DNA from: an uncultured beta proteobacterium
GTDB taxonomy: Bacteria > Pseudomonadota > Gammaproteobacteria > Burkholderiales > SG8-39
Direction of reading: 5' to 3'
NCBI GenBank assembly: GCA_903859155.1
Contig: CAIOLO010000019.1
Location: 74,472 to 138,471 of the forward strand
DNA: 64,000 nucleotides
Shown here: one piece after another, positions 3,655 through 60,495 of the stretch
How the letters are laid out: each line of letters begins with the position of its first letter
Numbering within the stretch: the stretch's first letter is position 1
The notes under the pieces: model-generated
The model's input: only the letters and a program-made list of their open reading frames with translations
Told to the model about the DNA's origin: nothing
Database searches by the model: none
Position numbers and translations under genes: made by a program

Positions 3655-3688
3655 TTTAAAACTCTCAGGACGCGGAACGTCGCGTCCT
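3655..3688 (-). terminator. Candidate intrinsic terminator for the minus-strand operon ending at 3688
   Basis: 8-bp stem AGGACGCG/CGCGTCCT (3667-3674 / 3681-3688). On the minus strand it is followed by GAGAGUUUUAAA. It sits between convergent genes. The U-tract is separated from the stem by 5 nt, so the call is only moderate. Confidence 0.4.
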
Positions 3689-4656: not shown

Positions 4657-4887
4657 CTACTTCTGCCGCCGCAGCGGGGGAATGGGGGGTTTGTCGCTCA
4701 TCTGGCGAATTCTCTCATCGTTGAGTTTGAAGTCGGGGTCATAGAGATCCGGCCGGATGACTTCTTCTTCCTCGGTACTGCGCCAGACGAAGAAGCAGCG
4801 CGGGCAGCGGTACAACTCCCAGGCGCCCTTTTCGGGCGACTCGAAGAACTGAAAGGCCGTGGCATCGTCGCAGCGGGGGCATATCAT
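4657..4887 (-). CDS. Hydroxyarylic acid decarboxylase small subunit D (BsdD/VdcD/ShdD family)
   Basis: 76 aa. 'CPRCD...GAWELYRCPRCFFVWRS...DPDFK' matches the four-Cys Zn-ribbon pattern of BsdD-type subunits. The start overlaps the stop of the C subunit (ATGA at 4884-4887). Confidence 0.8.
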   Translation of the reverse strand: MICPRCDDATAFQFFESPEKGAWELYRCPRCFFVWRSTEEEEVIRPDLYDPDFKLNDERIRQMSDKPPIPPLRRQK

Positions 4888-6296
4888 GGCTTGGCCATCC
4901 TTTTCTGGATCTCTTCTATCCAGAACGGCACGCCGGTGGGGATCACCACGCTGGCCGCGTCGGACAGGGGGATATCGGGATAGGCGGGTCTGGCGGCATC
5001 GATGATGATCTTGGTGCCCAGACCACGCACCAGGTGCGCCGGGTCGAGCGTCGAGGCGGGTGCGTTGGGAATGATCACCAGATCGCGTTCGGGCCGGAAA
5101 CGCACCGTCATCGCCCAGATCACCTGGTTGAGATCGAACGGATCGACATCTTCGTCAACGATGATGATGATCTTGGGATAGGTGACCCCGTGCGGCGTGG
5201 AGAGCAGCCTGCATCCGAGCGTCTTGGCGAAGCCGCCAAAGCGCATCTTCGCCGAGATGATGGTGCAATAGCCGTGCGTGTACATGGCGTTGACCGCCTC
5301 GACCTCGGCAAAGTCCGCCTTCATCTGCTTGTAGATGGTGGCGCAGGTGTTCAGGCCCTGCAGGTAGTCGATTTCGGTCCAGGGTTCGCCGGTGTAGAGA
5401 TTTTCGAAAATCAGCGTGTCGCGCCGCCGCGTGATGGTATCGACCTCGATTTCCACCTGCATCATGGAAGTGGAATAGGAGCCCGGATACTCGGCAAACG
5501 GCCCTTCGATAAAGCGCTTGCGCGGCGTGATGGCGCCTTCGATGACGATCTCGGCATGGGCCGGAACGTCGAGGTCGCCATGTTCGGAGGCGACCGTCTC
5601 CAGGGCCTCGCCGCGGATTGCGCCCATCATCGAGTATTCGTCCTCGTTGTACTTGAGCGGCGAGACGGCGACGAAAGGCACTGACGGGTCGTTCGAGATC
5701 GACACCGCGACGCGCAGCGGCTGATTGATCTCCTCGGCCTTGCGCAGGAATATCGCGAGGTCGTGCTGCGCCGAGATCTGGATGCCCAGGCGCTTGTGGT
5801 CTTTCACCTGCATGCGGTACATGCCGACGTTCTGGTTCGAAGGATCTTCGGGGTCGCGGGCGGCGACGCAGGCCTTGGACAGGTAAAACCCGCCGTCCAT
5901 GGGATTGACGCGGAACAGCGGCAGTTCCTTGAACAGGCTGAAGTCATCCTTGAGAATGACCTGCTTCACCGGCGCATTGGTGATGCGCTTCGGTTTCAAG
6001 GGGTAGCGGTCCCAGCGGCGCAGAATCTCGAAGAACTGCGCTTTCACCGGGGTGTGCTTGGGCATCTCCAGCGATAGCGCGTGATTCGCCCAGGAACCAT
6101 GCACGTTCATCGCAATCTGCTTGTCGGGATAACCGCGCAGCTTTTCAAACAGTATCGCCGGACCTGTGGCGGATTTGGTTGCAGCGCAGGCGATGGTGCG
6201 CACATCGGGTTCGAGGCTGACCTCTTCCTTGATGCGCAGCAGTTGTCCCTCTTCCTCGAGGCGGCGCAGGAAGTCTCTCAGGCTGTTGTAGGCCAT
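4884..6296 (-). CDS. Hydroxyarylic acid (4-hydroxybenzoate/vanillate/protocatechuate-type) decarboxylase subunit C, UbiD family, copy 2
   Basis: 470 aa. Near-colinear with Bacillus BsdC as I remember it ('MAYNSLRDFL..EEEGQLL', 'IAMNV.GSW.NHA', 'QNVGMYRMQVK', 'EGPFAEY', 'VNAMYTHG', 'VDEDVDPF'). Confidence 0.85.
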   Translation of the reverse strand: MAYNSLRDFLRRLEEEGQLLRIKEEVSLEPDVRTIACAATKSATGPAILFEKLRGYPDKQIAMNVHGSWANHALSLEMPKHTPVKAQFFEILRRWDRYPLKPKRITNAPVKQVILKDDFSLFKELPLFRVNPMDGGFYLSKACVAARDPEDPSNQNVGMYRMQVKDHKRLGIQISAQHDLAIFLRKAEEINQPLRVAVSISNDPSVPFVAVSPLKYNEDEYSMMGAIRGEALETVASEHGDLDVPAHAEIVIEGAITPRKRFIEGPFAEYPGSYSTSMMQVEIEVDTITRRRDTLIFENLYTGEPWTEIDYLQGLNTCATIYKQMKADFAEVEAVNAMYTHGYCTIISAKMRFGGFAKTLGCRLLSTPHGVTYPKIIIIVDEDVDPFDLNQVIWAMTVRFRPERDLVIIPNAPASTLDPAHLVRGLGTKIIIDAARPAYPDIPLSDAASVVIPTGVPFWIEEIQKRMAKP

Positions 6297-6297
6297 G

Positions 6298-6654
6298 TCA
6301 GATGGGGGTGAAAAGCGCGGCGTGCGGCCGGCTTTCCATCAGTTCTGCAAGCTTTTTGACGCTGCCGTAGTGGATGCAACTCGCCTGGCAATGCTTGACG
6401 CAGGACGGGGATTCCCCGTCGTTCGTCCGGGACTTGCACAGGTTGCAGTACATGGTGGGAAACGGCAGGTAATCGATGCGCAGGGACTTGTCGGGCCGCT
6501 CGGTGAGGAACTCGGTGAGTTTGAGGCCGCCGCGCCCTACCGGGTAATTATGTTCCTGCTTGCAGGCGATTTCGCAGGAATGGCAGCCGGTGCAGTATTC
6601 ATAATCGATCAGCAGGCCCATGCGTTTCACAGGTTTTTTGGCTGTGGCGTTCAT
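6298..6654 (-). CDS. Small 2x[4Fe-4S] ferredoxin-like subunit (mini DmsB-type)
   Basis: 118 aa. 'CTGCHSCEIAC' (CxxCxxCxxxC) plus 'CNLC..x11..CVKHCQASC'. ATGA overlap with the upstream Mo enzyme (6651-6654) and a 1-nt gap to the downstream UbiD gene. Confidence 0.7.
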   Translation of the reverse strand: MNATAKKPVKRMGLLIDYEYCTGCHSCEIACKQEHNYPVGRGGLKLTEFLTERPDKSLRIDYLPFPTMYCNLCKSRTNDGESPSCVKHCQASCIHYGSVKKLAELMESRPHAALFTPI

Positions 6655-8909
6655 ACGGTGGCTTCCTCATCCTTGACCTTGTAGACCTTGCACAACATCG
6701 TCTTGGTGGCCGCGCCGCCGAAGCCGGAAGTGCTCTGTTCGCCCATTGGGATGAGCTGGTTCACGTTGAGATCCCATACGCCGTAGAAATTGGGCGAGGT
6801 GCCGTCAGTCTCCGGCAGCCACCAGCCATGCAGGGCGTGGATCATCTGGCGGTGCATGGTCGGTGTGAGCCTGGCGCGGCGCTTGACCTTGCCGCGCACG
6901 CCTTCAATCCACACCATGTCGCCGTCCTTGATGCCCAGTGGCGCGGCGGTCTCGGGATGCATTTCCATTTCCGGAAAAGGCGACAGTTCGCGCAGCCAGG
7001 GAATCTGCCGGTGCTCGCTGTGGAAGAACGCGCTGTTGCGCCGGCCCGTGATCATGATCAGAGGGTATTTCTCCCAAATCTCGGGTGTGCTCAGCGGACT
7101 CTCGATGGGTTCGCGGTGATAGGGCAGCGGATCCAGGCCGTACTTCTCGTAGTTGGTGCAGTACAACTCGACCTTGCCGGTGTTGGTTCTGAAGCCGGGC
7201 TGGCCGTCGGGCCGCAACTGCCCCTTCTCATGGCGGCGGTATGGCACGGTGCCGGACTTGTGGTTCTTCGGCGCCATCGTCCAGGACTGCTCGGCAAGCT
7301 GCTCGAAAGTGAGACCCGTAGCCTTGAGCCGGAGTGTCATCAGCTCGCGCACGTTGGCCCAGGGGACGGCTTGGGGATTAAGGCGCTTGGCCAGTTCGAA
7401 GTTGATTTCCCAGTCGGAGCGGCACTCGCCGACTTGAATGACTTTCTGGATCGCGTTGATCGGCACGCCGGTGGTGAACACCGAATCCTTCTCCGGGAAA
7501 CTGCCCGCCGGAAGGATGATGTCGGCAATTGCCTGCGCCGTTGGCGTCATGAAGGTGTCGACCACCACGTTGAACTCGAGCTTGCGCACCGCTTCGTAGT
7601 GGCGCTTGGGGTCCTGGGCTGTGTTGGCGAGAAAATTGTTCGTCTGGCACCACAGGCCCTTGATCGGGTAAGGCTTCTGCGTTTCCATCTGCTCGAGCAC
7701 CATGTCCGAGAGGGCCCAGGCACGGAAGTTCTTGACCAGCGGAAAGCGGTCCGCGCCGATGCGTTTCTTGGTGAGGTTGGCAACGAACTCCTCGCCGTAG
7801 AGATCGATAACCTCCTGCGTCGAGTACGGGTAGATGGTGACCCCGAAAGGCGGGCGGGTGATGACGTTGCCGCCGGGGATGTCGATGTTGCCGGTAATGG
7901 CCCACAGGCAGTTGAGCGCGTGTATGGTGCTGGTCGCTTCGCGGTTGCTGTCAAGGGGCTGGCCGAAGCGCATCCCCGCCGGCTTGGCCGTGGCATACAT
8001 GCGCGCGGCCTTGACGATCTTTTCCGCCGGCACCCAGGTGATCGCGGCGGCCTTTTCCGGTGTGTATTCCTGCACGCGCTGCTTCAGTTCCTCGAAGCCG
8101 TGCGTCCACTTGGTGACGAACTCCTTGTCGTAGAGGTTCTCGTTGATGATGACGTTGAGCATGGCCAGCGCCAGCGCGCCGTCGGTGCCCGGGCGGATCT
8201 GCAGCCACAGCTCGGCGCGCGAGGCTTCCCAGGAGCACACCGGGTCGATGACGATGAGCTTGGTGCCGCGCTTCATCATGTCCACGGCCCAGTGGCCGGA
8301 GAAGTAATGGTCGGTGCAGCCGCTGCCCGCAAGATTGCGCGCCCAGGACACCAGCACCTCCGGTGCCTTCCATTCCGGATCGTCGTAGCGCTGCGGCGAG
8401 AACTGCGCGGCATCGGGGAAGGTGAAATCACCCATCACCATCGACATCGCCGCCAGGCGCGGCGTGAAACAGGAAATGCCCGACAGTCCGAACAGCGTCC
8501 AGTTCGGGCTGCCATAGGCATACGCCAGGAAAATGATGTAGCCGCCGGCGTCACGCCCGGTACCCTGCCCGAATACCATGGATTCAGGGCCGTATTTGTC
8601 GCGGATGGTGCGCATCTTGTCCTCGCAGGTATCGAGCGCCTCGTCCCAGGAGATGCGTGCCCACTTGCCTTCACCGCGCGCCCCGACCCGTTTCATCGGG
8701 TACTGCAGGCGATCCGGGTGATAGATGTACTGCGTGAGCGCCAGCGCTCGAGGGCACAAGCGTCCCTGCAAATAGGGATGATCCTCATCGCCCTCGCATT
8801 TGGTCAGCTTGCCATCCTTGATGGTCACTTTGACCCCGCAACCGCCGTGACAGCCCGGACCGGCGGACCAGGCCCCCATCCTGACAACGCGTTCGCCCAT
8901 TTCGCCCAT
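6651..8909 (-). CDS. Cytoplasmic molybdopterin (bis-MGD, DMSO reductase superfamily) enzyme, acetylene-hydratase-like
   Basis: The ORF runs to 9251, but ATG 8909 has the RBS GAGGGAGG 7 nt upstream and family homology starts there ('MGAWSAGPGCHGGCGVKV...LCPR' Fe-S domain). Other family features: 'LQYPMKRVG.RGEGKW.RISWDEAL', 'GTDGALALAMLNVIINENLYDKEFV', 'TPTAQ.ADIILP'. No twin-arginine signal. Confidence 0.8.
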   Translation of the reverse strand: MGEMGERVVRMGAWSAGPGCHGGCGVKVTIKDGKLTKCEGDEDHPYLQGRLCPRALALTQYIYHPDRLQYPMKRVGARGEGKWARISWDEALDTCEDKMRTIRDKYGPESMVFGQGTGRDAGGYIIFLAYAYGSPNWTLFGLSGISCFTPRLAAMSMVMGDFTFPDAAQFSPQRYDDPEWKAPEVLVSWARNLAGSGCTDHYFSGHWAVDMMKRGTKLIVIDPVCSWEASRAELWLQIRPGTDGALALAMLNVIINENLYDKEFVTKWTHGFEELKQRVQEYTPEKAAAITWVPAEKIVKAARMYATAKPAGMRFGQPLDSNREATSTIHALNCLWAITGNIDIPGGNVITRPPFGVTIYPYSTQEVIDLYGEEFVANLTKKRIGADRFPLVKNFRAWALSDMVLEQMETQKPYPIKGLWCQTNNFLANTAQDPKRHYEAVRKLEFNVVVDTFMTPTAQAIADIILPAGSFPEKDSVFTTGVPINAIQKVIQVGECRSDWEINFELAKRLNPQAVPWANVRELMTLRLKATGLTFEQLAEQSWTMAPKNHKSGTVPYRRHEKGQLRPDGQPGFRTNTGKVELYCTNYEKYGLDPLPYHREPIESPLSTPEIWEKYPLIMITGRRNSAFFHSEHRQIPWLRELSPFPEMEMHPETAAPLGIKDGDMVWIEGVRGKVKRRARLTPTMHRQMIHALHGWWLPETDGTSPNFYGVWDLNVNQLIPMGEQSTSGFGGAATKTMLCKVYKVKDEEATV

Positions 8910-8960: not shown

Positions 8961-9059
8961 CAGGGGGCGGGCTACCTTGATCCATGTCAACGAAGCGGGA
9001 GGCGCCCGCGGCGCGGTGTGCGTACACTGTGGCGCTTGCCACAGGTGAGGACGAATACC

Positions 9060-9581
9060 ATGGGTGCAACCGGTCCCGGTGATGCATGGACTGTGCCCGC
9101 TCTGCGGGCCGAGATCGAGGCTTTTCTGGCCGCCTGGCACACGCTGGCGCTGGCCACCGTGGCCGAGGACGGCAGCGCGCATGCCGCGTCGCTGCTCTAT
9201 GCGCCGGATGGTTTGGGCCTGGTCTGGACATCGGATCCGCGCAGCCGGCACTCGCAGTATCTCGATGCGCGTCCCCGGGTTACGGCAACCGTTGCGCCGG
9301 ATTACAGCGACTTCGCAGCGATTCGCGGCCTGCAGATGGCAGGTGAGGCCGTCCGCCTTAGCGGCCCCATGGAAATGGCGCGCGCCGGTGCGTTGCTGAC
9401 GACACGCTATCTGTTTCTTGCGAAGCTCTCAGGCGCACCCGCGGTATTGCGCGCAGCCTGGGACAAGGCGAGCTTTTACCGTTTCAAGCCATCGCGCATC
9501 ACGCTGATCGACAATACCCGCGGGTTCGGGCACAAGGCGACTTTGCTGGTCGCCGCCGACGGTACCCTGGCCCTGGGGTAA
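9060..9581 (+). CDS. Pyridoxamine 5'-phosphate oxidase-family FMN-binding split-barrel protein
   Basis: ORF 9018..9581; ATG 9060 preferred. The pattern 'LATVAEDGSAHAASLLYA....LVWTSDPRSRHSQ' is typical of PNPOx-like small flavoproteins. Confidence 0.5.
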   Translation: MGATGPGDAWTVPALRAEIEAFLAAWHTLALATVAEDGSAHAASLLYAPDGLGLVWTSDPRSRHSQYLDARPRVTATVAPDYSDFAAIRGLQMAGEAVRLSGPMEMARAGALLTTRYLFLAKLSGAPAVLRAAWDKASFYRFKPSRITLIDNTRGFGHKATLLVAADGTLALG

Positions 9582-9624: not shown

Positions 9625-10905
9625 TTAACCCGCTGCGCCCCCGCCGATTGCGGCCTTCGGCTTTTCCTTCAATGCGACCAGCAGAAACATCGCCAGTTGC
9701 AGCGCCACCAGCACGGCAAAGATCGCCTGGTAGCCCTCGGCCGCGTATCGTCCGTTGACCGCAGGCCACTGGTCTAGCGTCGCGCCGACGCTCCACTGGA
9801 ACAGGAACGCAAGTGAAAAGATCAGCAGGTTGGCGGCCGTATTGACCCGCCCGGCGAATTCCGGAGGAAACTGGCGCGAGAGCATGGCCAGCACCATCGG
9901 GCTGCCCGAACCCATTAAGAAATAAGCGAACCAGATCGGCGTTGCTTTGTCTCCGAGCAGCACGATGAGGGCAAACAGGATGGTGATGATGCCGCTCTGT
10001 ATTTTGTAGAGTGTCAGGGCGCGCACGCCGCGACGGATCAGCCGGTCGCAGATGGCTCCGCTCACGACCAATCCGGTTACCGCGGTGCCGGCATACCAGG
10101 TCATCAGTGCAAGTGCCTGCGGCCGCTGGTATCCGCCCACGTCGCGCAACCAGGGGCCGATCCACAGGCTTTGCAGGGCCCAATTGGTGCCGGCGATCAT
10201 CGCCATCAGCATCGACAGGCGCCAGAACGTGCCGTTTGCGGCAATTCTGCCGAATCCCGCCGCCAGTGCGGTGAGCGACTGTTCCGGGTCGGCGTCGCGG
10301 TGCTCGGGCACAACCAGGTAGAGCAGGGCCGAGGCAAATATCAGCAGCCCTGCAGCCACCGAGAAGACAACGCGCCAGGATACGTATTCCAGCGACCATC
10401 CCACCGGGCCGGCGGCCATGATCGCGCCCAGGCCGCCGAACGCCATCAGCAGGTTCAGTGACAGAGGCACGCGCGGCAAAGCGAACCATTGGGTGAACGC
10501 TTTCGCCGCCCCCATCAACCCCACCGCCAGTCCCAGTCCGATCAGCGCACGCCCTGTGGCGATGGCAATGAAGCTGCTGCCGATGGCATGCAGCGCGCAG
10601 CCCAGTGCCGCGAGCAGCAGCAGCGATGCATGCACCCGCCGCGATCCGTAGCGGTCCAGCAGGATGCCCGCCGGCAGTTGGGTAAGCGAGAAACCGACGA
10701 AAAAGACGCTGGTCAGCAGCCCCAGATCCGAGGCGCTCAGCACGAATTCCGCCGTCAGCTCCGGCACCAGGACGGCATTGATATTGCGCAGGGCATTGGA
10801 GAGAAAATAGCCCAGCGCATAGGGCAGCCAGATCGAAGCCACCAGCCGCGGCCCCTTCGCGCCTGCCGAGGGCGGTTGCGGCGGCCCATAGGCGGAGGAC
10901 TTCAT
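9625..10905 (-). CDS. MFS transporter
   Basis: 426 aa and hydrophobic throughout. The loop motif 'LPAGILLDRYGSRR' between TM2 and TM3 is typical of MFS proteins. It lies downstream of transhydroxylase-like pair 1 on the same strand. Confidence 0.8.
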   Translation of the reverse strand: MKSSAYGPPQPPSAGAKGPRLVASIWLPYALGYFLSNALRNINAVLVPELTAEFVLSASDLGLLTSVFFVGFSLTQLPAGILLDRYGSRRVHASLLLLAALGCALHAIGSSFIAIATGRALIGLGLAVGLMGAAKAFTQWFALPRVPLSLNLLMAFGGLGAIMAAGPVGWSLEYVSWRVVFSVAAGLLIFASALLYLVVPEHRDADPEQSLTALAAGFGRIAANGTFWRLSMLMAMIAGTNWALQSLWIGPWLRDVGGYQRPQALALMTWYAGTAVTGLVVSGAICDRLIRRGVRALTLYKIQSGIITILFALIVLLGDKATPIWFAYFLMGSGSPMVLAMLSRQFPPEFAGRVNTAANLLIFSLAFLFQWSVGATLDQWPAVNGRYAAEGYQAIFAVLVALQLAMFLLVALKEKPKAAIGGGAAG

Positions 10906-11044
10906 GCGGCGTGTCCGCCGTGCCGGCGCTGCGCTGCTTCAGGCGTCACCGCGGGCGCCGCTGGCATGGGCGGGCGGCCAGTTGCCGCAAACGCGCGATT
11001 CTGTCGCAGGCGGAAGTGGTCAAGCGGATGGCCCGCCCGGCAAT

Positions 11045-11908
11045 CTATGCCGCCTTCGCAGCTTTGGGTTCGAGCGCGATGGCACCCAGATGGCAGCTTT
11101 TTTTCAAAGCGAACTCCAGCGTTTTGCTGCTGAAACGCGGATCGCTCACCTCGATGCGGTAGCTGGCGCCGTCTGCATCCAGCCGGCGGAAACGGAAATC
11201 CCCGTAGGTGTCGCTCACCGTTTCGGCCAGCTTCTGCGTACCCTTCCACAGAACGATGTGAGCATCCGCGATGCATTCGATTGCCCCGTTGAGCATTCCT
11301 TCCAGTGTACCGCCGACGAAGGACTTGAAATAGCTGTCGAGGTTCTTGTAATACACGCGCGGCTTGTTGCCGAATTCGGGGTGAAGCACCTCGAGCTTCT
11401 CGTCGCGCACCATGCGCTGCATTTCCTCGTCTTCCAGATGCAATGTCTGGAAGGCATTGGTCGGACACACCTGCGAGGCGCGCGTCTGCGTCCACCCCTT
11501 GTCGAGCAGGTGCGCGTCGAACGGCCAGGTCTGCGGCAGCTGTTTTTCTTCGTTCCACCAGATCATGCCGTAGGGGCAGGACTTGACCAGTTCCGGGTGC
11601 CCCTTGGAGCGCACCGGGTCGAAAATCACGATGCCGTCGGCGCGCTTGCTGATCGCGCCCTCGGGTGCGCCCTTCATGCAGCTGGGTTCGTCGCAGTGGT
11701 TGCAGGTTACCGGCAGATAGGCCACCTCCACCATGGGATATTCGCCCTGTTCGCGCTGCCGGATCTCGATCCAGCGATGTCCCTGACGCGGCATCTCTTC
11801 GGCATAGCCGGGGAATGAATTGCCGCAGTACTCGTCGTGTACGGCGAGCGCGCAGTTGTTGCAGTTAAAGCACTTCGCTACGTCGATGAGCAGGTTCCAC
11901 TTTTTCAT
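11045..11908 (-). CDS. Pyrogallol hydroxytransferase/resorcinol hydroxylase-like small (beta, Fe-S) subunit, paralog 1
   Basis: True start is '[19 protein letters not shown]' at 11908, overlapping the alpha stop (ATGA). It has 'CNHCDEPSC', 'SCPYG' and a C-terminal carboxypeptidase-regulatory-like beta-sandwich ('YGDFRFRRL'). Only 8 canonical cluster cysteines are present. Confidence 0.8.
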
Positions 11909-14900
11909 GACGGCATCGCCTCCTTGGCTGCGGCTGCATTGGCCGCCACTTTTTCGCTGGTACCAGCGCGCGCGCCCAGGGCCGTCGAGCCGTCCCAGAG
12001 TTCCACCTCCACCAGGCAGGAATTGGGCGCCATCCCCAGCACCTTGCTGGCGATGGAGCGCTTGGGCGTGAGATTGTTGATGCAACCGCCGCGGTCGACC
12101 GAATTCCCCGGTTCGCCCAGAGGGTCGTACACCGCCGAGGAAGAGTAGGAGTGCGCCGTCCCTTGCCCCAGCCGGCTGGTTACATGCGCAGCGCACAGGA
12201 CCGCGCCGCGATCATTGTGCACTTTGACCAGGTCGTGGTGTTTGATGCCGCGCGCCCGGGCGTCCTGGGCGTTGATCCGCACCACCCAGTAGTAGTAGCC
12301 CTTCACCAGTACGCGGTGTTCGGCGATGTCGTTGGTCGAGCATTGCTTGCCGTCGGCGAAGGTGTGAAAACTGAAGCGCGAGTGCGGCGAGAGCAGTTGC
12401 AGCGGAAAACGCCCGAACAGCTCCTTGGTCTGCGGGCCTTCCCAGGACTGCAGGTATCTTACGATCGGCGGGCGCTCCGGATCGTTTGCATCGAAATGCT
12501 TGAGACTGGAGCACTCGAACTCGAACTTGCCGCTCTGGGTCTGCAGCCCCATCAGGAACTGCTTGCGGTAGTCGCCCGGCAGGGGAGAGGGCTCGGGCAC
12601 GTCCTTCTTGCGGCCCTCGTAGAACCAGCGCATCGCCACCGGGTCGCGCTTGCCCTCTTCGAGCGGCGGCACGACGTAATAGCCCTTTTTCAGGAACTCC
12701 TTCCACGAGATGACTTTGGGCAGATCGGAGGCGTCGAACACGCGCTTCACCCAGTCGAGCTCGTTCATGCCTTCGCAGAAATAAGTGCCCAGGCCCAGCC
12801 GGCTGCAGATCTCGGTGAAAATCCGGATGTCGGACTTCGATTCGCCCAGCGGCTCTATGCATTTGTGCTGCAGCATGATGACGCGGTGGTTCATCTGCGT
12901 CTGATAGTGCATCCCATAGCCGCCCGCGTGGGCCAGATCGCTGATGTCCCAGCGCTCGAACTGGGTGCAGGCGGGCAGCAGAACGTCGGCGAACTTCGCT
13001 TCGCCTTCGAACCAGATTGATTGATTTACGACGAACTCGAGCTTGTCGGTACGGTACATGTTCACGTAGCGGTTGGTCTCGGTCATGGTGCCGATGGACG
13101 CACCGCCGTACTTGTAGAGCATCTTGATGGGCGAATGGCCGGGCGCCGGATAGGAAAACTTCATGAACTGGCCTTCGATGGTGAAGCCGTTCCATGGATA
13201 GCCCTCGGCCTTGCCATCCATGATGGCCTCCGGAATGCGCAGGCGCGGCACTTTCTGCATCGAAGGGCCGTAGCTGGGCAGCTGCGGCATGCGCTGATAG
13301 AGGCTGACCGGGATGCCCGTGTTCTGGATGTCGCCCGACATACCGCCCTCGGCGTAGCCGGGGAAATAGAAGCGGATGTCGATAGGCCCGCCGTACTGCA
13401 GGTTGCCGTAGTTCACGCCGGGCTTGCCCATGCCCTGCATGCCCATGAGGCAGGCCAGCGCGCGAGCAAACTGGATGCCGTTGGCGGCGCGGCAGGCGCC
13501 GCCGTGCCCGTTGCCCGGGCCTCCGGCCGCGAGGTAGGTCTTTGTCTTGCCCCACTTGCGCGCAAGGGCTCGCACTTCCTTCGCCGGGACCCCCGTTTCC
13601 GCCTGTTGCCATTCAGGGGTTTTCGGCACACCGTCTTCCTTGCCCAGGACGTAGTCGCTCCAGACATCGAAGCCCACGCAGCGGTCGGCGACGAATTTCT
13701 TGTCGTACAGCCCCTCGGTCATCCAGACGTGCGCGATTGCCAGGGCGAGCGCGGTGTCGGTGCCGGGTTTGGGCGCCATCCATTTCCCGCCCAGCAGCGC
13801 CGCCGTGTGGTTGAAGTAGGGATCGATGTGCACCAGCTCGATGCCCAGGTCCTTGAGCCACTGCCTGCGGATGGTGGCCTCGAACCCGCCGTAAGCGCCA
13901 TTGGTGGCTTCCGGGTCGGACGACCAGAACACCATCATTTCGCATTCCTTCATGCAGTCTTCGATGGTGTTGTAGAACTCCACCTGCCCCAGGCGCATGC
14001 TGTAGCCGTAATGATGCGTGGCGCCCCAGTACCAGCCCTCCCAGCTGTCGGGGTTGTGCGCCACGCGCGAGGCGCCGATGGTGTTGAAGAACTTGTAGGC
14101 CGCGCTGATGTAGTAGCCGATGTTGCCCCACATGTGGTGCGAGCCGTGGTTGCCCAGGATGGCGCCCTGTCCATGCTCCGTCTTGACGCGGGTGATCTCG
14201 CCGGCGACGATGTCGAGGGCCTCTTCCCAGCTGATCCGCTCATACCCGGAGATGCCGCGATTCTGGGGGTTGCGTTCGCCTTTCGGATCGAAATCGACGC
14301 GTTTCATGGGGTAGAGCAGCCGGTCCGGCGAGTAGAGCGTCGATTTCACGCTGACGCCGTGGGGCGAAAGCGTGGTCTTGTGCGGAGGGGTGAAGCTCTT
14401 GCCGCGCGCCTTGATGGTCCACGCCGGGGCATCCTGGTCGGTGAATTCCATCGGTGTGGTGCGAATGACCTTGCCGTCCTTCACGTAGACGAACAAGGGG
14501 CCGCCATTGGTATTGGTGACATAGCGTTTGGTCCCGTCGCCCATGTCGATGCCGTACTCGACCTCCGGGTTCTGCATCAGCATCATGGTCTGGGTGAACC
14601 AGACGATCAGTTCGTCCGAGCCGTCGGCGCCGAACTGATAGTTCTTCATCGCCTCGATGCGCTCCAGTTGGTCCACCCAGGGCACGAACAGCCGCGCGCC
14701 GATCTTCGCCGAGGCGACGCTGATGGTGATGTCCGGTTTCGGGTGGAGGCCGCTCTCTGAGCTGACCCGCCCGTCATTGAAGGTGTAGTACCGGGCTATC
14801 GACTTATCCGCCGTCGCGATCTGGCAGGTGAAGTTCTTTTCCTTGAGCCTTTTTGCGAACTCGGGGAAGCGGCTCGCCTGGAAATTGAGCGCATGGGTCA

Positions 14901-14943
14901 TGCCGTACAGGATCACGGAAAACTTGGTGGCCGCGAGACTCAT
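11905..14943 (-). CDS. Pyrogallol hydroxytransferase/resorcinol hydroxylase-like large (alpha, Mo-bis-MGD) subunit, paralog 1, with an SCP2-like N-terminal extension
   Basis: ORF 11905..14958. ATG 14943 has the RBS AAGAGG. The core is colinear with paralogs 2 and 3 ('[34 protein letters not shown]', '[16 protein letters not shown]', 'VFWSSDPE'). The extra ~140 aa at the N-terminus is absent from paralog 3. Confidence 0.8.
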
Positions 14944-14994
14944 GGTCGCCTCTTTCATCTGGGTTGAGCATAGGTGAGGAACTGATGCGCGCGA

Positions 14995-15105
14995 ACTTTA
15001 TGGCAATATTGGCAAATTGTCAATATAAGACAATATTGCAATATTTTATGGGATAATAATTGGCATTAATGTATTTAAATTATCCATATTGGATAAAGAA
15101 ATCAA
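14995..15105. promoter_or_regulatory. AT-rich divergent promoter/operator region with repeated CAATATTG palindromes
   Basis: Lies between alpha-1 (minus) and the IclR gene (plus). Perfect CAATATTG at 15004-15011 and 15031-15038; CAATATT at 15039-15045; CAATATA at 15021-15027. Conspicuously A+T-rich in a GC-rich genome. Confidence 0.5.
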
Positions 15106-15873
15106 TTGAGCCGTTCGAAAATGCTCTCGATTCTGGATCTGTTTGACAAGGCTTCGCCGGCCTGGTCAGCGGATGCCATTTGTGCGCGCCTGGGCTGCTC
15201 AACCTCGAGCGGCTATCGCTACATCCGCGAGTTGTGCGCGGTTGGACTGCTGACCCGCATCTCGGGTGGGACCTATGTGCTGGGGCCGAGAATCGTGCAG
15301 CTGGAACTGGTCATGAGGGAAATCGATCCGGTGTCAAAAACCGGCCTGCCGCTCATCGCCGACCTGGTGCGCCAGACCGGCTGCGACGTGTTGCTGGCCA
15401 ATATGTACGGCGACCATATCGTCAATGTGCTGCACGAACGCGGCGCAGAACAGCTGCCCCTCAGCTATGAGCGCGGCCGCCCGCACCCCTTGTTTCGCGG
15501 CGCCATGTCGAAAGCCATCCTTGCGTTTCTGCCGCGCGCGCGCGCGCTGCGCCTGTACAACGCGCATGCGGCCCTGGCCGCAGAGAGCGGCATGGGCCAC
15601 AGCTGGCGCGAGTTCTGGCAGGCGCTGCAGCAGATCCGTAAGAAAGGCTTCAGCGAGAGCGACGGCGAGCTCGATGCGGGCGTGATCGGCATAGGCGCCC
15701 CGGTGCTCAACGGTGACGAAATCATGGGCAGCATCTCGATCGGCTGCTCGCGCGCCCGGCTGGCCTTGCTGAACAAGGCGAATCTGACCGAGTTGCTGCT
15801 GTCAACCGCAAGGCAGATCAGCCAGGAGGTGGAACGGATTTCGCATGCGGAGCCCACGCCAGGCGCGGTGTAG
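15106..15873 (+). CDS. IclR-family transcriptional regulator
   Basis: 255 aa (TTG 15106, or ATG 15121). N-terminal wHTH 'LSILDLF......SADAICARLGCSTSSGYRYIRELCAVGLL' and a C-terminal IclR effector domain ('GVIGIGAPV...GSISI'). Confidence 0.85.
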   Translation: MSRSKMLSILDLFDKASPAWSADAICARLGCSTSSGYRYIRELCAVGLLTRISGGTYVLGPRIVQLELVMREIDPVSKTGLPLIADLVRQTGCDVLLANMYGDHIVNVLHERGAEQLPLSYERGRPHPLFRGAMSKAILAFLPRARALRLYNAHAALAAESGMGHSWREFWQALQQIRKKGFSESDGELDAGVIGIGAPVLNGDEIMGSISIGCSRARLALLNKANLTELLLSTARQISQEVERISHAEPTPGAV

Positions 15874-17231: not shown

Positions 17232-17765
17232 TCACGCGGCCAGCACCGACTTCAGGATAGCCTCGAACGCGTCGTCGGCGAGCTTGCGCAGTTCCGCGTC
17301 GGTGCGGTCCTGGATCGGGGGCGGGATGAACACCACCGCCGGCTCGAAGGCGAGCGTTTTGCACTGTGCCACGGCACCGTCTCGGAATAGTTCCGTCACC
17401 ACGCCCACGCTCACCACGCCGCGCGCCTCCAGGTCTGTGATGTCGTGCATACAGCACGACGTGCAGGACCCTCAATCGGCCAGGCCTTCGACAACGATAT
17501 CGCACTCCGCGGCGATGGTCTGCTTCAGCTCGGTCGGGGCTTCCCAGGAGAAATGCGGCTTGGCGTAGCGCTTCACCTTGACGCCGCGCTCTGTGAATAA
17601 TTCGTCCAGCCGGTCGAGGAATATCTCCCCCGGATCTTTTCTGATGTCCATGATGCCCACCGTGAGCCCTTCGAGTGATTGCGGCCGCTGCAGACGGTCG
17701 CGGAATTCGCGGTGCAGTTCGCTCGTCGGGTCGACCAGTACCAGATCCTGAAGTTCTTCGTTCAT
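17232..17765 (-). CDS. UGSC-motif selenoprotein (Sec encoded by in-frame TGA at 17472-17474); function unknown
   Basis: ORFs 17472..17819 and 17232..17450 are in the same frame. Read-through gives '...IVVEGLAD-U-GSCTSCCMHD...'. A SECIS-like hairpin begins just downstream. ATG 17765 has the RBS GGAAGGA. Confidence 0.7.
17432..17470 (-). other. Bacterial SECIS-like stem-loop
   Basis: Upper stem GUCGUGC/GCACGAC (17460-17454 / 17448-17442) with loop UGUAU. Lower stem GGUC(C)UG/CAGACC. The upper stem starts exactly 11 nt after the UGA. Confidence 0.65.
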
Positions 17766-17797
17766 GCGGTGATTTCCTTCCACTTGATAGCCGAAAA

Positions 17798-19255
17798 CTA
17801 TGGTTTTATTTCTGCCCAATCCATGCCGATGTCCAGGCTCAACCCGGCGATGACAGCCGCCATCATTCCCGCCTCGCCGCCCGCGGCCACGATGTTCAGT
17901 CCATCGGGCAGGAACTTCGGGATGGTGAGCGTGGGGTCGTCGAGCCGCGCGCGCTGCTCGGGCGTGATGCGGCGCAGCCCCTCGTCGTCGTCGTTGTAAC
18001 CGGGCATCAGCTCGCGCACCGGAATCTGCAGCCGCTCGAGAATCGCCGCCTTGAGCCGCTGCTTCGACCAGCCCGCCTCGCGAAAGTGGACGGTGTGCTC
18101 AGGCGCGATCAGCAGCAGCGCGGTGGAGTAGGTGATCTTCGGGTGGTGCACTACCCGCAGGCACTGCGCGTAGGTCGCCACCAGGCCTTCGGGTGTGCGC
18201 GAGCGGTGATCGTGCAGGCCCTGCACGCCATTGCCGGTGAAGATGTGCACCACGTTCTGATCGGGTCGGAAGCCGCGCTCGACCGCGAGCGATTCCCACG
18301 GGCTGCCCAGTTCATCCTCGGCGAAGCACATGGTGTACTTGCCCTGGTGCCCGATGGTGCAGCGGTCGATGCCCCCGGGGCCCGGCCGGCCGCCGCCGAC
18401 GTTGCGGATGATCAGTTGCAGCGCGCGCCCGATGGATGCATTCGCCCGGTTGGCCTGGCCCAGCACATTGCGTCCGGAGTTCATGCCGATCGCCCGGCTG
18501 ATCGGGCCGCTCACCACGATCATCGGCGTCGCGAAGGAAGTCGTGCACAGCACCCCATGCATGCCGAATTTCGGACCGCAGGCCGTCTCGATAGCCGCCA
18601 GCACCACCGGAAAGTATTCGGGTTTGCAGCCGGCCATGACGGCATTGACCGCCGCTTTTTCCACCGTGCATGCGGCGCGGTCCGGCGGAACGATGGCAAT
18701 CACTTCGTCGGGCCTGCGGCGCGTGCCCTTCAACATGCGCAGCACCCGCGCCTCCGTCGGCGGGGTGACCGGCAGGCCATCGGTCCAGCCGCGATCGAAC
18801 ATCGCCTCCATGGGATCGACGTGGGCCGGCACGTGCACGCGGCGCGAGACGATGCCGGTGTCGCCAAAGCGCGCGGCCAGTTCCTCGGCCATGCCCGGCT
18901 CGATGTTGATCGCGCCGCAGCCCGGGCGGTTCTCCGGGAGCTTGTCGCCCAGGCCTTTGACGCCGGTGATCGCCTGCCATTCGCCACGGTTCCAGCCGAT
19001 CACACGTTCGACCTCGCGGCCCTGCTCGAAGCGGATCAGCGTGGGGACGATCTCGATTTTCTGCCGGTAGGAAAACGCAAGCCCGCGGTCGTCGATGACT
19101 CCGGGCACGCCTTCGGGAAAGGCGGGATCGTCCTGGGTGTACACCGACAGCGGCCCACCCTTATCCGTCAACTCGCGCAATATCGGTTGCACCAGTTCGC
19201 AGGTGGGGCAGTCGCGCTTGACGACGGCGACCAGTCCATTGACGATTTCATTCAT
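17798..19255 (-). CDS. Thioredoxin-fold (CPTC) domain fused to a ~380-aa domain of unknown function
   Basis: The ORF extends to 19876, but the true start 'MNEIVNGLVAVVKRDCPTCELVQPIL' at 19255 overlaps the stop of the upstream FAD gene (ATGA). I do not recognise the C-terminal part. Confidence 0.6.
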   Translation of the reverse strand: MNEIVNGLVAVVKRDCPTCELVQPILRELTDKGGPLSVYTQDDPAFPEGVPGVIDDRGLAFSYRQKIEIVPTLIRFEQGREVERVIGWNRGEWQAITGVKGLGDKLPENRPGCGAINIEPGMAEELAARFGDTGIVSRRVHVPAHVDPMEAMFDRGWTDGLPVTPPTEARVLRMLKGTRRRPDEVIAIVPPDRAACTVEKAAVNAVMAGCKPEYFPVVLAAIETACGPKFGMHGVLCTTSFATPMIVVSGPISRAIGMNSGRNVLGQANRANASIGRALQLIIRNVGGGRPGPGGIDRCTIGHQGKYTMCFAEDELGSPWESLAVERGFRPDQNVVHIFTGNGVQGLHDHRSRTPEGLVATYAQCLRVVHHPKITYSTALLLIAPEHTVHFREAGWSKQRLKAAILERLQIPVRELMPGYNDDDEGLRRITPEQRARLDDPTLTIPKFLPDGLNIVAAGGEAGMMAAVIAGLSLDIGMDWAEIKP

Positions 19256-20619
19256 GCGGGGTCCTTGACAAGTTCTTCTCTGCCCAGATAGGCGCCATCG
19301 GTTTCCAGTTGCCGCTGCAGCTTGTTCACCTCGATCCGGCGGGGCTGGACGCCCGACTGCAACGCAAGGTGTGCGGCGGTACCCGCGGCCTGTCCCATGA
19401 CGAAGCAGGGGCCCGAGACCCGCGCCGAAGCCTGGCCGTCGTGCGTCATCGAGGCGCAGCGGCCGGCGACAAACAGGTTGTCCACATTCCTGGGTACGAT
19501 CATCCGGTAGGGCAGATGGTTGAAGCCGCGTGATTCGGGGATCTTCGGGAACTTGATGACGACGGTGTCCGCCACATGCGCCTCCACCGGCCAGCCGTTG
19601 ACACCGATGCTGTCCTCGAAGCTGGCGCACTCGAGGATGTCCCGCTCCGAGAGCATGTAATCGCCGACCACGCGCCGCGTTTCGCGGATGCCCAGTTGCG
19701 GAGCGATCTCGACGATGTAGGAATTCTCGAATCCGGGGGCCATGCGGCGTACGAACTCGAACACCTCCATGCACTGGCGGCGCCCCTCGACCTCGCCGTA
19801 ACTCAATTGCTCCGCGTCGATGCCGCTGACAGCCGAACCGTCGGGGTTCTTGATAAGCGTGGCATTGGCGCTCCACTCCATGGGATTCATCTGCGGCCTG
19901 AAGATTGCGCCGCGGCGCGGGAAGCGGCGTCCCTGCCGTTCGGCCTCCTCCATCAGCCTGGGGATCTCCTCCCGGGCATTGCGGGCCCTGACCGGATCGA
20001 CGTTGTTGATGCGGATTTTTGCCGATGGATAGTAGCCGCTGCCGGCGCCATCGCCGACTTCAAAGGGCGCCCCGGCCCACGCGGCGAGATCGCCGTCGCC
20101 CGAGCAGTCGATGAACATCCGCCCGCGGATGGCGCCACGCCCGGATTTGCTCTCGACCAGCAGCGCATCGATGCTGCGATCGGCACCCATGCACACGCCC
20201 ACGCCGAAAGCGTGAAACAGCACCTTGACGCGCGTGGCCGCCATCAACTGGTCGGCTACGACCTTGTAGGCCGAGATGTCATACAGCTGCGCATTGATCT
20301 TGCCGCCCAGTGACAGGTGCGGGGGATTGAGGCCACCGAGGCGATCGAGCCGCGCGAGGATTTCGTCGGCCAGGCCGTGCACGACCTGTTTGATTTCTCC
20401 GTGAACATTGGCATGCAGTCCGCAGAAATTGGAAATGCTTGCCGCCGTGCCGCCGCCGCCCAGAAATCCGTAACGCTCGACCAGCACGGTGGAACGTCCG
20501 CTTTTGCCGGCGGCCGCGGCGGCCGCAATCCCGGCCGGCCCGCCGCCGAGGACTACAACGTCGAATTCCCCCAATACCGGTGTCTGCCGGCCGGGCTCCG
20601 CAATCGTGCTGTTGACCAT
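19252..20619 (-). CDS. FAD-dependent oxidoreductase (GIDA/FAD_oxidored-like)
   Basis: Start 'MVNSTIAE' at 20619 with a GGAGG RBS. Dinucleotide motif 'DVVVLGGGPAGIAAAAAA' and 'ERYGFLGG'. Confidence 0.7.
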   Translation of the reverse strand: MVNSTIAEPGRQTPVLGEFDVVVLGGGPAGIAAAAAAGKSGRSTVLVERYGFLGGGGTAASISNFCGLHANVHGEIKQVVHGLADEILARLDRLGGLNPPHLSLGGKINAQLYDISAYKVVADQLMAATRVKVLFHAFGVGVCMGADRSIDALLVESKSGRGAIRGRMFIDCSGDGDLAAWAGAPFEVGDGAGSGYYPSAKIRINNVDPVRARNAREEIPRLMEEAERQGRRFPRRGAIFRPQMNPMEWSANATLIKNPDGSAVSGIDAEQLSYGEVEGRRQCMEVFEFVRRMAPGFENSYIVEIAPQLGIRETRRVVGDYMLSERDILECASFEDSIGVNGWPVEAHVADTVVIKFPKIPESRGFNHLPYRMIVPRNVDNLFVAGRCASMTHDGQASARVSGPCFVMGQAAGTAAHLALQSGVQPRRIEVNKLQRQLETDGAYLGREELVKDPA

Positions 20620-20660
20620 GTTGATGCCTCCGAGTGGCTTGTCTTCAGGGGGAGGTGCGC

Positions 20661-21629
20661 CTAGTCGGCCGTGATTCCCGCGGCTTTCACGACCTTTGCC
20701 CATTTTTCGAGTTCTGTGCGGATGAAGGCATCGAATTGCTCCGGCGAATTGCCGACCGACTCCAGGCCCAGCTCGGCCATGCGTGATTTGACTTCAGGCG
20801 CCTGCACCGTGGCGACGAACGCCGCATTGATCCGGTTGACGATGGCGCGAGGCGTCGCACTGGGCACCACTGTGCCGTTGATGCTGAGCACGCTGAATCC
20901 GGGCAGGAGTTCGCCGACCGTCGGAATGTTCGGCGCAATCGCGGCGCGCTGCGGACTGGCTGTCGCAATGGCCTTGAGCTTGCCCGACTTGATATAGGCC
21001 ATGGCCGAGTGCAGCGGGTCTATCATGATTTGAACGCGCCCGGCCATGACGTCGGGGTATGCCGGTCCGCTTCCCTTGTAGGGGATGTGGACCATGTCGA
21101 TGCCGGTGTTGATCTTCAGCAACTCCCCGGTGAGGTGCATGGAACTGCCGGCCCCGGCTGTCGCGTAGCTCAATTTGCCCGGCATCTTTTTCGCCAGGGC
21201 GATCAGCTCGGCAAGCGTGTTTGCCTCCAGCGCGTGGTTCGCAGTGATCACCACGTGCGAAATCGTATTCATGGTGACGCCCGACAGATCCTTGACCGTG
21301 TCGAAAGGCATGTCCGGGCGCACGCTCGGGTTGATGACATGGGGCATCGCCACCTGACCAATGGTGTAACCGTCGGGTGCGGACTTGGCGACATAATTGG
21401 TGCCCACGACCATGCCGGCACCGGGCTTGTATTCGAGGACGACCGGTTGTCCCCAGATCTCCTGCAGCTTTTGCGCGAGCAGGCGCGCCATCACGTCGGA
21501 CCCGCCGCCGGGCGCATTGGCCACCACGAGAGTGACCCGTTTGTTGGGAAAATCCTGCGCGTGCCCGAGAGGCACGAGCACCGTGCCAAGTATCAGTGCA
21601 GCGCAGATTGCTTTGCCGGGACAGGTCAT
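20661..21629 (-). CDS. Bug/TctC-family substrate-binding protein (copy 3)
   Basis: 322 aa. Signal peptide followed by 'DFPNKRVTLVVANAPGGGSD'. Confidence 0.85.
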   Translation of the reverse strand: MTCPGKAICAALILGTVLVPLGHAQDFPNKRVTLVVANAPGGGSDVMARLLAQKLQEIWGQPVVLEYKPGAGMVVGTNYVAKSAPDGYTIGQVAMPHVINPSVRPDMPFDTVKDLSGVTMNTISHVVITANHALEANTLAELIALAKKMPGKLSYATAGAGSSMHLTGELLKINTGIDMVHIPYKGSGPAYPDVMAGRVQIMIDPLHSAMAYIKSGKLKAIATASPQRAAIAPNIPTVGELLPGFSVLSINGTVVPSATPRAIVNRINAAFVATVQAPEVKSRMAELGLESVGNSPEQFDAFIRTELEKWAKVVKAAGITAD

Positions 21630-46600: not shown

Positions 46601-46695
46601 GGCGGTGACTCCTGTTCCAGGGTGATATTCCTGCCATTAAACGGAAAGCGGTTCATGGCAGTGTCGGTGTAACTCGGCGTCCGCGTGCAGCGAAT

Positions 46696-48497: not shown

Positions 48498-48503
48498 GCG
48501 TTT

Positions 48504-52458: not shown

Positions 52459-52459
52459 T

Positions 52460-60178: not shown

Positions 60179-60495
60179 GTTTCTGCCTTTCCTTTTTTGA
60201 TGCGAACCTGGCGCGCAAGAACCCGCGCTCAAGCTCGAGCGAAACCAAGCGTGTTGCCGATCTTAAAAAAACCTGCGCCGCTTTCAAATGAAATGAATGC
60301 TTTTTTCAATATTTTCAGTTGCGCTGCCGCGCCACCTCTGCAACGGGGTGCTTCTTACTTGCCTGATGATTGAAAGGCCTTTCGGTTGCATTAAGCGCTC
60401 GGACAGCGTTGGACATTTGATGCAGATCAAATAGGTGGTGGCCCCTTTAAATGCATAGTTGTCCTTTGAGTCGGTTGGGCCGGGCAAGACCCGGC

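Follow-up and report, generated by a model that had tools for sequence, protein, structure and literature searches.

A putative DbhLS-type, oxygen-independent molybdenum hydroxylase of phenols in a lake-water betaproteobacterium

Discussions of oxygen-independent phenol hydroxylation usually confine it to a small number of anaerobes that denitrify or ferment. The closest described systems are the pyrogallol-phloroglucinol transhydroxylase AthL/BthL of Pelobacter acidigallici (structure 4v4c), the 3,5-dihydroxybenzoate hydroxylase DbhLS of Thauera aromatica AR-1, and the resorcinol hydroxylase RhLS/RehLS of Aromatoleum (Azoarcus) anaerobium, which belongs to the same family and hydroxylates a meta-diphenol independently of O2 (PMC10100899, PMC10084136). 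Here we describe a gene pair of this kind, pair 1 (subunits alpha1 and beta1), in a 64,000-nucleotide stretch (the window) of contig CAIOLO010000019.1 from assembly GCA_903859155.1, whose host, unlike that of Thauera DbhLS, is a lake-water betaproteobacterium. The comparisons below most favour reading pair 1 as an AthL/BthL-family enzyme of the DbhLS type that hydroxylates a carboxylated meta-diphenol independently of O2. We hold with moderate confidence that it encodes a cytoplasmic two-subunit molybdenum phenol hydroxylase of the bis(molybdopterin guanine dinucleotide) (bis-MGD) type, in the DbhLS subclade and with the working proposed below.

Pair 1 and the described hydroxylases and transhydroxylases

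Three consecutive open reading frames (ORFs) occupy the minus strand at 9625-14958 and encode alpha1, beta1 and a major facilitator superfamily (MFS) transporter. Alpha1 spans 11905..14943, or to 14958 in its longest ORF (1012 aa from the ATG at 14943, 1017 aa from the longest ORF). That ATG is the likely start codon, being preceded by an AAGAGG Shine-Dalgarno sequence and used identically in public gene calls of a near-identical protein. Beta1, a BthL-like iron-sulfur subunit of 287 aa with a C-terminal beta-sandwich, lies at 11045..11908 on the same strand, and direct reading of the sequence shows the stop of alpha1 and the start of beta1 to overlap as ATGA, through which beta1 is translationally coupled to alpha1; the initial annotation had placed the pair and its overlap correctly. 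The Pfam matches of alpha1 all exceed their cut-offs (AhtL-like_1st, PF21423, 91.3 bits against a cut-off of 27; Molybdopterin 109.6; Molydop_binding 54.4), and beta1 matches Fer4_11, a 4Fe-4S dicluster family (63.5 bits), and, below the cut-off, also CarboxypepD_reg (25 bits). Only seven nucleotide differences, five of them synonymous, separate pair 1 from three independent assemblies, and the pair is intact; a reading as pseudogenes was rejected, the ORFs being whole and near-identical in these assemblies.

In a search of solved structures alpha1 matches AthL (4v4c_A) with 1027 bits and beta1 matches BthL (4v4c_B) end to end with 206 bits, in both cases far beyond chance, and a full-length AlphaFold 2 (AF2) model of alpha1 (pTM 0.83) is placed by Foldseek onto 4v4c_A with a TM score of 0.92. 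The resemblance to the Pelobacter transhydroxylase noticed initially is therefore strong: fold and domain order are the same, and in both systems the alpha subunit lacks an iron-sulfur (Fe-S) cluster and the beta subunit has a C-terminal beta-sandwich. There are nevertheless clear differences. AthL is a short form without the N-terminal SCP2-fold domain, whereas alpha1 is a long form, and the two fall in different clades; AthL has Arg153 and Trp354 and BthL 12 cluster cysteines, against Tyr, His and 8 cysteines in pair 1. The AthL-like catalytic bis-MGD part of alpha1 (11905..14568, minus strand) has no Fe-S domain. No Molybdop_Fe4S4 match was found with Pfam and no twin-arginine (Tat) export signal is present, the N-terminus being the SCP2-fold domain; the enzyme of pair 1 is cytoplasmic. 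A periplasmic or respiratory reductase was also considered and was rejected for want of a Tat signal and an FS0 domain.

As a stand-in for DbhLS of strain AR-1 we used the locus of Thauera chlorobenzoica (L081; locus numbers are our own) that encodes protein P0059, named 3,5-dihydroxybenzoate hydroxylase in UniRef. In pairwise comparison alpha1 is 71% identical to P0059, 59% to alpha2 and 50% to alpha3, the alpha subunits of two further pairs in the window, and 54% to AthL, and for beta1 and the beta subunit encoded next to P0059 in Thauera the identity is 57%, which supports the initially proposed likeness to 3,5-dihydroxybenzoate hydroxylase. A neighbour-joining (NJ) tree of 87 non-redundant sequences and 841 core columns, which took in AthL and P0059, has a long-form clade in which alpha1 and P0059 share one subclade and alpha2 belongs to another; AthL sits apart from alpha1 in a short-form subclade, and alpha3 in a different short-form clade together with metagenome-assembled genomes (MAGs) labelled Acidobacteriota, Bathyarchaeia and Nezhaarchaeales. 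All three alpha subunits thus lie in the AthL/BthL branch and in no other characterised clade of the dimethyl sulfoxide reductase superfamily, although the grouping of alpha1 with AthL itself was not found when the suggested phylogeny and active-site comparison were run with AthL and P0059. The nearest named relative of alpha1, at 94% identity, comes from a Betaproteobacteria MAG, and no RhL was present among the 120 listed matches of protein searches with alpha1 or alpha3.

The active sites tell a similar story. Eleven positions, including His144, Asp174, Ser175 and Tyr404, are ones that we take to line the active site of AthL. The equivalents of these four residues are all kept in alpha1, both in a HMMER alignment and in the alignment of the 87 sequences, as is Tyr560; the Mo-ligand Ser, which lies in NPDSWEGW, hardly varies across the latter alignment, and the same goes for the His, Asp and Tyr residues. 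Over the eleven positions alpha1 reads HHYYIDSWHYY, identical to Thauera P0059, the other signatures being HHYRHDSWWYY (AthL), HHYWTDSWWYF (alpha2) and HDYRMESWMYY (alpha3). Arg153 and Trp354 of AthL, presumably residues of the substrate and co-substrate pocket, are replaced by Tyr and His in alpha1 just as in the Thauera DbhL-type protein. Position 153 is Arg or Lys in all short forms but one (P0214, Leu) and Tyr, Trp or Phe in all long forms. Because of the 71% identity, the common signature and the clustering with P0059 rather than with AthL, we assign pair 1 provisionally to the DbhLS type, with which it shares the subclade, the signature, the SCP2-fold extension and the Trp/Asp replacement in the beta subunit described below. 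Of the individual substrates, 3,5-dihydroxybenzoate is the single most likely one, although we put this forward tentatively.

The SCP2-fold domain and the iron-sulfur subunit

Two structural features of the long forms stand out, and no description of either was found in the searchable literature, a body of text outside which the key original papers lie. The first is an extension of some 135 residues at the N-terminus of alpha1 and alpha2 that AthL and alpha3 do not have. Within the 87-sequence set every member of the long-form clade has 130-144 such residues, conserved across phyla with a mean column identity of 54%. The extension, searched as the N-terminal domains of three proteins, has no Pfam match at E<=1, the Pfam SCP2 families included, and a 29-sequence profile finds no sequence match in the PDB. 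However, an AF2 model made with 22 sequences (pLDDT 87, pTM 0.78) gives 30 Foldseek matches at E<=1e-3, all of them SCP2-fold proteins or domains (best E about 1e-5, probability 1.0), among them alkylsulfatase C-terminal domains, UbiJ-SCP2 of ubiquinone biosynthesis, and archaeal and animal SCP2. By this model the N-domain is of the alpha/beta SCP2 fold, comprising about aa 1-125 and a linker to about aa 139 (14569..14943, minus strand). UbiJ-SCP2 (6h6p), the alkylsulfatase C-terminal domain (2yhe, 2cfu) and SCP2 (1c44) resemble aa 1-125 in predicted fold, the stand-alone domains with target-normalised TM scores of 0.6-0.7, notwithstanding the lack of detectable sequence similarity. A profile search with the N-domain against 1.84 billion representatives returned 732 proteins, mostly truncated fragments that allow no clean count; in the best 150 representatives the domain is fused to AthL-like proteins only, with no alternative architecture, and it appears to be specific to the AthL-like family. 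The SCP2 fold is one that binds lipids or quinones; speculatively, the domain might dock the enzyme on the membrane or hold a quinone.

The second feature concerns the Fe-S clusters of the beta subunit. The 12 cluster cysteines are complete in BthL and beta3. In beta1 only 8 remain, with V, W, D and A at the positions of BthL Cys23, 126, 129 and 145, and ligands are left for two [4Fe-4S] clusters rather than three. In beta1, beta2 and Thauera DbhS alike, Trp, Asp and Ala, Pro or Gly occupy the positions of Cys126, 129 and 145, and beta1 and beta2 also share Val at Cys23. The Trp/Asp replacement occurs in 61 of the 77 partner subunits of long forms; the other 16 keep Cys126 and Cys129, 15 of them with all 12 cysteines, and come mostly from Desulfobacteraceae, Syntrophales, Chloroflexi and Actinomycetota MAGs. 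By homology with four-cluster subunits such as FdnH and NarH, the four lost residues would ligate a single cluster, counted second from Mo along the chain, and if this assignment is correct then the distal cluster of beta1 would be electrically isolated.

The N-terminal domain could be given a different meaning, namely that the substrates of the long forms are lipophilic phenols, for instance alkylresorcinols or prenylated phenols and quinols, and that the SCP2 domain delivers the substrate, as in alkylsulfatases, and does not deal with the electron acceptor. The best matches of the N-domain, the substrate-recruiting SCP2 domain of alkylsulfatase and the isoprenoid-quinol-binding UbiJ-SCP2, would be in keeping with this, as would the exchange of Arg or Lys at AthL position 153 for an aromatic residue in all long forms. 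However, Thauera DbhL has the same domain and is named for the polar 3,5-dihydroxybenzoate, and the transport components beside the pairs of the window (an MFS protein resembling anion:cation symporters (ACS), tripartite ATP-independent periplasmic (TRAP) systems and TctC receptors) suit small carboxylates; we consider it very unlikely that lipophilic phenols are the substrates.

Neighbouring genes, a proposed working and its rivals

The layout of the neighbourhood is drawn from gene calls of a near-identical 33.7-kb ENA contig together with Pfam and NCBIfam scans of the window. A divergent IclR-family regulator and an MFS gene behind pair 1 had both been noted initially, and both are present. 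The regulator (15106..15873, plus strand; Pfam IclR_C 72.5 bits, with HTH_IclR) probably starts at the ATG at 15121, giving 250 aa, the length of the gene call in near-identical contigs; its NCBIfam match is a weak PcaR/PcaU/PobR-like one (68 bits, below cut-off). It was thought to be the only intact regulator of the window, and it is the sole one that we detected in a search that was not exhaustive; no broken regulator, to which it might be opposed, was found. Between it and alpha1 is an AT-rich control region of 162 bp (14944..15105), in which a promoter scan finds a sigma70-like promoter facing alpha1, TTGACA-17-TAAAGT (15023 to 14995, minus strand), a match to consensus only. Three TGNCAATAT repeats spaced 17-18 bp apart and an inverted repeat (14999-15011 / 15031-15043) both overlap this promoter and together form a candidate IclR operator.

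The MFS_1 transporter (9625..10905, minus strand; 426 aa; Pfam MFS_1 124 bits) begins 136 nt downstream of beta1, and a terminator and promoter scan found no terminator-like site in the gap. Its best NCBIfam match is TIGR00893, an ACS family, at 79 bits and far below cut-off; weak as it is, the resemblance points to import, and the transporter probably imports an anionic aromatic acid. The earlier description of it as exporter or importer thus leans towards import. An MFS protein 40% identical to it is encoded about 3.4 kb upstream of a Sterolibacterium pair (L008) on the opposite strand. A near-identical metagenome contig (ENA ERZ18648440, L083) departs from the window within or after beta1, at about 10823..11100 of the window; its beta1 differs from that of the window at 18 nucleotides, with seven non-synonymous changes among them, and another gene takes the place of the MFS gene, which hints at a strain-level rearrangement at the 3' end of the operon.

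Beyond the MFS gene, and convergent with it, lies a gene for a PNPOx_N-family, flavin-binding-like protein (9018..9581, plus strand; 173 aa; Pfam 39.7 bits), followed by a neighbouring unit on the minus strand. This unit is headed by a second molybdenum enzyme, a 752-aa bis-MGD protein with an N-terminal Fe4S4 domain (6651..8909) that resembles acetylene hydratase and catechol dehydroxylases; its best PDB match is acetylene hydratase 2e7z (333 bits). There follow a ferredoxin-like protein of 118 aa with weak Fer4 family matches (6298..6654), a VdcC-like decarboxylase subunit of the UbiD family (4884..6296; NCBIfam VdcC 608 bits against a cut-off of 650; Pfam UbiD), a VdcD subunit (4657..4887; NCBIfam VdcD 95.6 bits, cut-off 30) and, as the last gene, a medium-chain dehydrogenase/reductase like Zn-dependent alcohol dehydrogenases and quinone oxidoreductases (3688..4650; Pfam ADH_N and ADH_zinc_N; NCBIfam PIG3-type quinone oxidoreductase 125 bits, below cut-off). 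VdcC-like and VdcD proteins are the subunits of a non-oxidative hydroxyarylic-acid decarboxylase, here spanning 4657..6296.

The second molybdenum enzyme has a counterpart in the Thauera dbh island, to which it is 45% identical, so that in both places an acetylene-hydratase-like enzyme shares an island with the hydroxylase pair. Normal growth of T. aromatica on 3,5-dihydroxybenzoate is stated to depend on its homologue of this enzyme, which is related to catechol dehydroxylases (PMC7028382, eLife). Besides the window, homologues stand beside long-form pairs in at least nine loci (L005, L008, L030, L045, L049, L057, L073, L081 and L087), in hosts from the Beta-, Gamma- and Alphaproteobacteria and the Desulfobacteraceae. 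This recurrent adjacency suggests that the two molybdenum enzymes share one pathway, perhaps as a hydroxylase and a dehydroxylase. In other respects the islands differ. Thauera DbhLS is accompanied by a LysR regulator (DbdR) and a TRAP transporter, pair 1 by IclR and MFS; and in place of the cupin, NAD_binding_2, M24 and E1 set of Thauera the window has the VdcCD decarboxylase and the quinone-reductase-like gene.

From these elements we propose the following working of pair 1. IclR would keep the divergent promoter repressed, with release on binding of a phenolic acid or an intermediate, and the ACS-like MFS protein would import an anionic carboxylated meta-diphenol, for example a resorcylate. 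The phenol would bind at the Mo centre, which the conserved Ser of NPDSWEGW holds and the conserved His, Asp and Tyr flank, and gain a hydroxyl group, a chemistry assigned from the family. Two electrons would leave via the proximal Fe-S cluster of beta1, and the SCP2 domain might, speculatively, dock the enzyme on the membrane or present a quinone acceptor. The hydroxylated product would then be processed by the neighbouring unit, that is the second molybdenum enzyme, the ferredoxin, VdcCD and the quinone-reductase-like protein, as its recurrent synteny would suggest.

A bolder proposal, which we regard as a long shot, is that the long forms (alpha1, alpha2, Thauera DbhL and hundreds of relatives) constitute a distinct mechanistic subclass, in which the SCP2 domain is either a membrane anchor or a holder of membrane quinone, loss of the middle cluster has cut the Fe-S wire in beta subunits of Proteobacteria, and electrons of the proximal cluster pass directly to the SCP2-bound acceptor. 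Together with the adjacent molybdenum enzyme, such a subclass would move hydroxyl groups on phenolic acids without O2, even in oxic lake water. If true, this could explain the membrane association reported in the older literature for DbhLS- and RhLS-type activities, which have no membrane subunit. The SCP2 domain and the lost cluster are in any case testable handles on how hydroxylases without a membrane subunit transfer electrons to the respiratory chain.

The presence of a VdcC/VdcD-type decarboxylase 5 kb away on the same strand raises the possibility that pair 1 is a redox-neutral pyrogallol-phloroglucinol transhydroxylase, with VdcCD turning gallate into pyrogallol and pair 1 isomerising it. 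Alpha1 has kept each of the catalytic residues of AthL (His, Asp, Ser and Tyr), the loss of an Fe-S cluster from beta1 is most easily tolerated where no net electron transfer takes place, and homologues are annotated as pgthAB in aerobes. We nevertheless think this improbable, as alpha1 does not group with AthL and has the Tyr and His of the Thauera DbhL-type protein in place of Arg153 and Trp354, while the decarboxylase belongs to a separate transcription unit that lies beyond a convergent gene. Moreover, the phloroglucinol pathway involves a phloroglucinol reductase (PGR), the cyclase-family DPGC and a BKACE lyase (PMC10470551), a set that is not seen among the ORFs of the window that were scanned: no DPGC-type cyclase or BKACE family was found, small ORFs not having been scanned exhaustively, and the only short-chain dehydrogenase/reductase (SDR) is 21 kb away.

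Decarboxylation could also come first in a different sense, with 2,4- or 2,6-dihydroxybenzoate being decarboxylated by VdcCD or an Amidohydro_2 enzyme and a resorcinol-type pair 1 converting resorcinol to hydroxyhydroquinone. The window encodes four UbiD and two Amidohydro_2 decarboxylases, of which two of either kind are less than 10 kb from pair 1, and resorcinol hydroxylase is of the same family (PMC10100899, PMC10084136). On the other hand, the nearest relative with a named function, P0059, is named for a carboxylated compound, and the cluster of A. anaerobium contains btdLS, bqdLMS and sigma54 regulators, whereas neither these regulators nor genes for a hydroxyhydroquinone dehydrogenase (BtdLS) or of the BqdLMS type were detected in the window. 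A resorcinol-type enzyme seems to us doubtful for these reasons, and the DbhLS-type assignment is preferred.

Several points weigh against that assignment and the working attached to it. The name of P0059 is a database label and not the outcome of an assay of that protein, and an identity of 71% leaves substrate specificity unfixed; 58 other cluster representatives score above P0059 against alpha1, and alpha1 and the Thauera dbhL product may be paralogues, P0059 moreover being a stand-in for AR-1 DbhL. The eleven positions compared are putative active-site residues. Loss of an Fe-S cluster from beta1 may argue against electron transfer through that subunit. Decarboxylases of the VdcCD type usually act on 4-hydroxybenzoates, which fits gallate or 2,4-dihydroxybenzoate better than 2,3,5-trihydroxybenzoate. 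ORF scans and gene calls show the cluster of pair 1 to lack LysR, cupin, NAD_binding_2, M24 and an E1-type hydroxybenzoquinone dehydrogenase, and because the set from cupin to E1 is missing the pathway is not simply that of Thauera. Finally, no RNA-seq run was found to contain the pair 1 gene.

Distribution of the family and the remainder of the window

The enzyme type had been thought to be known from only a handful of anaerobes, a view that cannot be maintained at the level of sequence. Scanning one genome per GTDB species gave at least 600 matching stretches for AthL-like relatives, and a protein search with alpha1 gave 4,572 clusters at E<=1e-50. Genomic contexts were taken from the best 80 of the at least 600 stretches, nearly all of which carry full-length long forms; their hosts include Burkholderiales, Magnetospirillum, Sterolibacterium, many Xanthobacteraceae, Rhodospirillaceae and other Alphaproteobacteria, as well as Chloroflexi, Actinomycetota, Desulfobacteraceae and Syntrophales. 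Many relatives come from lineages not regarded as anaerobes. According to a 2026 preprint, pgthAB homologues occur throughout the marine SAR116 clade and the reaction is also found in aerobes, and sequence of the window itself occurs in lake-water metagenomes of several studies with a word share of 0.8-0.95. Pair 1 therefore belongs to a known type and is not a rarity, and the breadth of the family suggests a substantial but little-studied route, independent of oxygenases, by which phenolic acids of plant and humic origin are turned over.

A beta ORF was detected beside alpha in most of the 80 loci, and none in about 10, mostly short contigs. Thauera L081 and Magnetospirillum SS-4 (L086) share the order LysR-alpha-beta together with NAD_binding_2, cupin, a 116-aa protein and an M24 peptidase, and in Magnetospirillum an E1-type dehydrogenase comes next, an arrangement of the oxidative hydroxyhydroquinone-pathway type. 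Xanthobacteraceae loci repeatedly have the order Amidohydro_2-alpha-beta-TctC or MetE-like-TctC-alpha-beta. In a Burkholderiales MAG (JADLAV010000013.1, 8466..23036; L087), whose alpha subunit is 74% identical to alpha1, the order DoxX-LysR-alpha-beta is followed by the Fe4S4 molybdenum enzyme, Amidohydro_2 (two in the cluster), an SDR, a LigB-type extradiol dioxygenase and an aldehyde dehydrogenase, so that, as judged from the genes, a putative O2-independent hydroxylase and an O2-dependent ring-cleavage enzyme are close neighbours in one cluster. Genes for carboxylate uptake of the TRAP or TctC type accompany pairs 2 and 3 and many homologues, and LigW- or UbiD-type decarboxylases recur near homologues; this recurrence of carboxylate uptake and non-oxidative decarboxylation points to phenolic acids as the substrates.

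Pairs 2 and 3 are where the initial annotation had placed them, as ORFs and Pfam confirm, and their domain sets equal that of pair 1. Alpha2 (43586..46600, minus strand) is a long form with the SCP2 domain and is followed by its partner beta2 (42741..43589, minus strand). Beside them on the same strand lies a TRAP transporter (DctP 48504..49541, DctQ 47991..48500, DctM 46696..47994), the whole spanning 42741..49541. Alpha3 (60544..63141, plus strand) is a short form without the SCP2 domain, followed by beta3 (about 63143..63979, plus strand), and a TctC receptor gene (59186..60232) is divergent from pair 3. The three alpha subunits are mutually 48-59% identical, each belongs to a subclade of its own, and their putative substrate-site residues are not the same, which makes several distinct phenolic substrates, as first supposed, plausible. 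The density of three pairs within 64 kb remains high; L032 and L076 likewise have more than one pair, with two each in a single locus.

The setting is a large phenolic-acid island. In total the window encodes five bis-MGD enzymes (the three AthL-like pairs and two further ones), four UbiD paralogues (2179..3609, 4884..6296, 22747..24285 and 27023..28510), two Amidohydro_2 proteins of the LigW/ACMSD type, two AMP-ligases, one TRAP system and ten TctC receptors. ORF family scans of the window found no UbiX gene for prenyl-FMN synthase and no ring-cleavage dioxygenase.

The remaining bis-MGD enzyme, of 811 aa, has an N-terminal 2Fe-2S (Fer2) domain (52460..54895, plus strand) and is 35% identical to the acetylene-hydratase-like enzyme of Thauera. 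It closes a cluster at 49877..54895 in which it is preceded by a xanthine-dehydrogenase-type FAD subunit (FAD_binding_5 and CO_deh_flav_C, 51574..52458) and an AMP-ligase; a xanthine-dehydrogenase-type electron module is here joined to a catalytic subunit of the dimethyl sulfoxide reductase type, an unusual combination. FAD_binding_5 homologues are also found near AthL-like pairs in L013, L025, L045, L052 and L058. A molybdenum subunit of the xanthine-dehydrogenase family at 24282..25839 (plus strand) is split over three frames (Ald_Xan_dh_C, MoCoBD_1, MoCoBD_2) and represents either a frameshifted pseudogene or an assembly error.

Two further groups of genes deserve mention. Adjoining the IclR and TctC genes, the minus strand at 17232..20703 encodes two small UGSC-domain proteins, a PF12831 FAD-dependent oxidoreductase and a 485-aa protein that has a thioredoxin-like CxxC N-terminus and belongs to no Pfam family. 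Directly downstream of beta2 (40969..42636, minus strand) is a gene for a 555-aa fusion of NUDIX, metallo-beta-lactamase and winged-helix domains, followed by genes for a TctC receptor, an Amidohydro_2 protein and a nitrilase-like C-N hydrolase.

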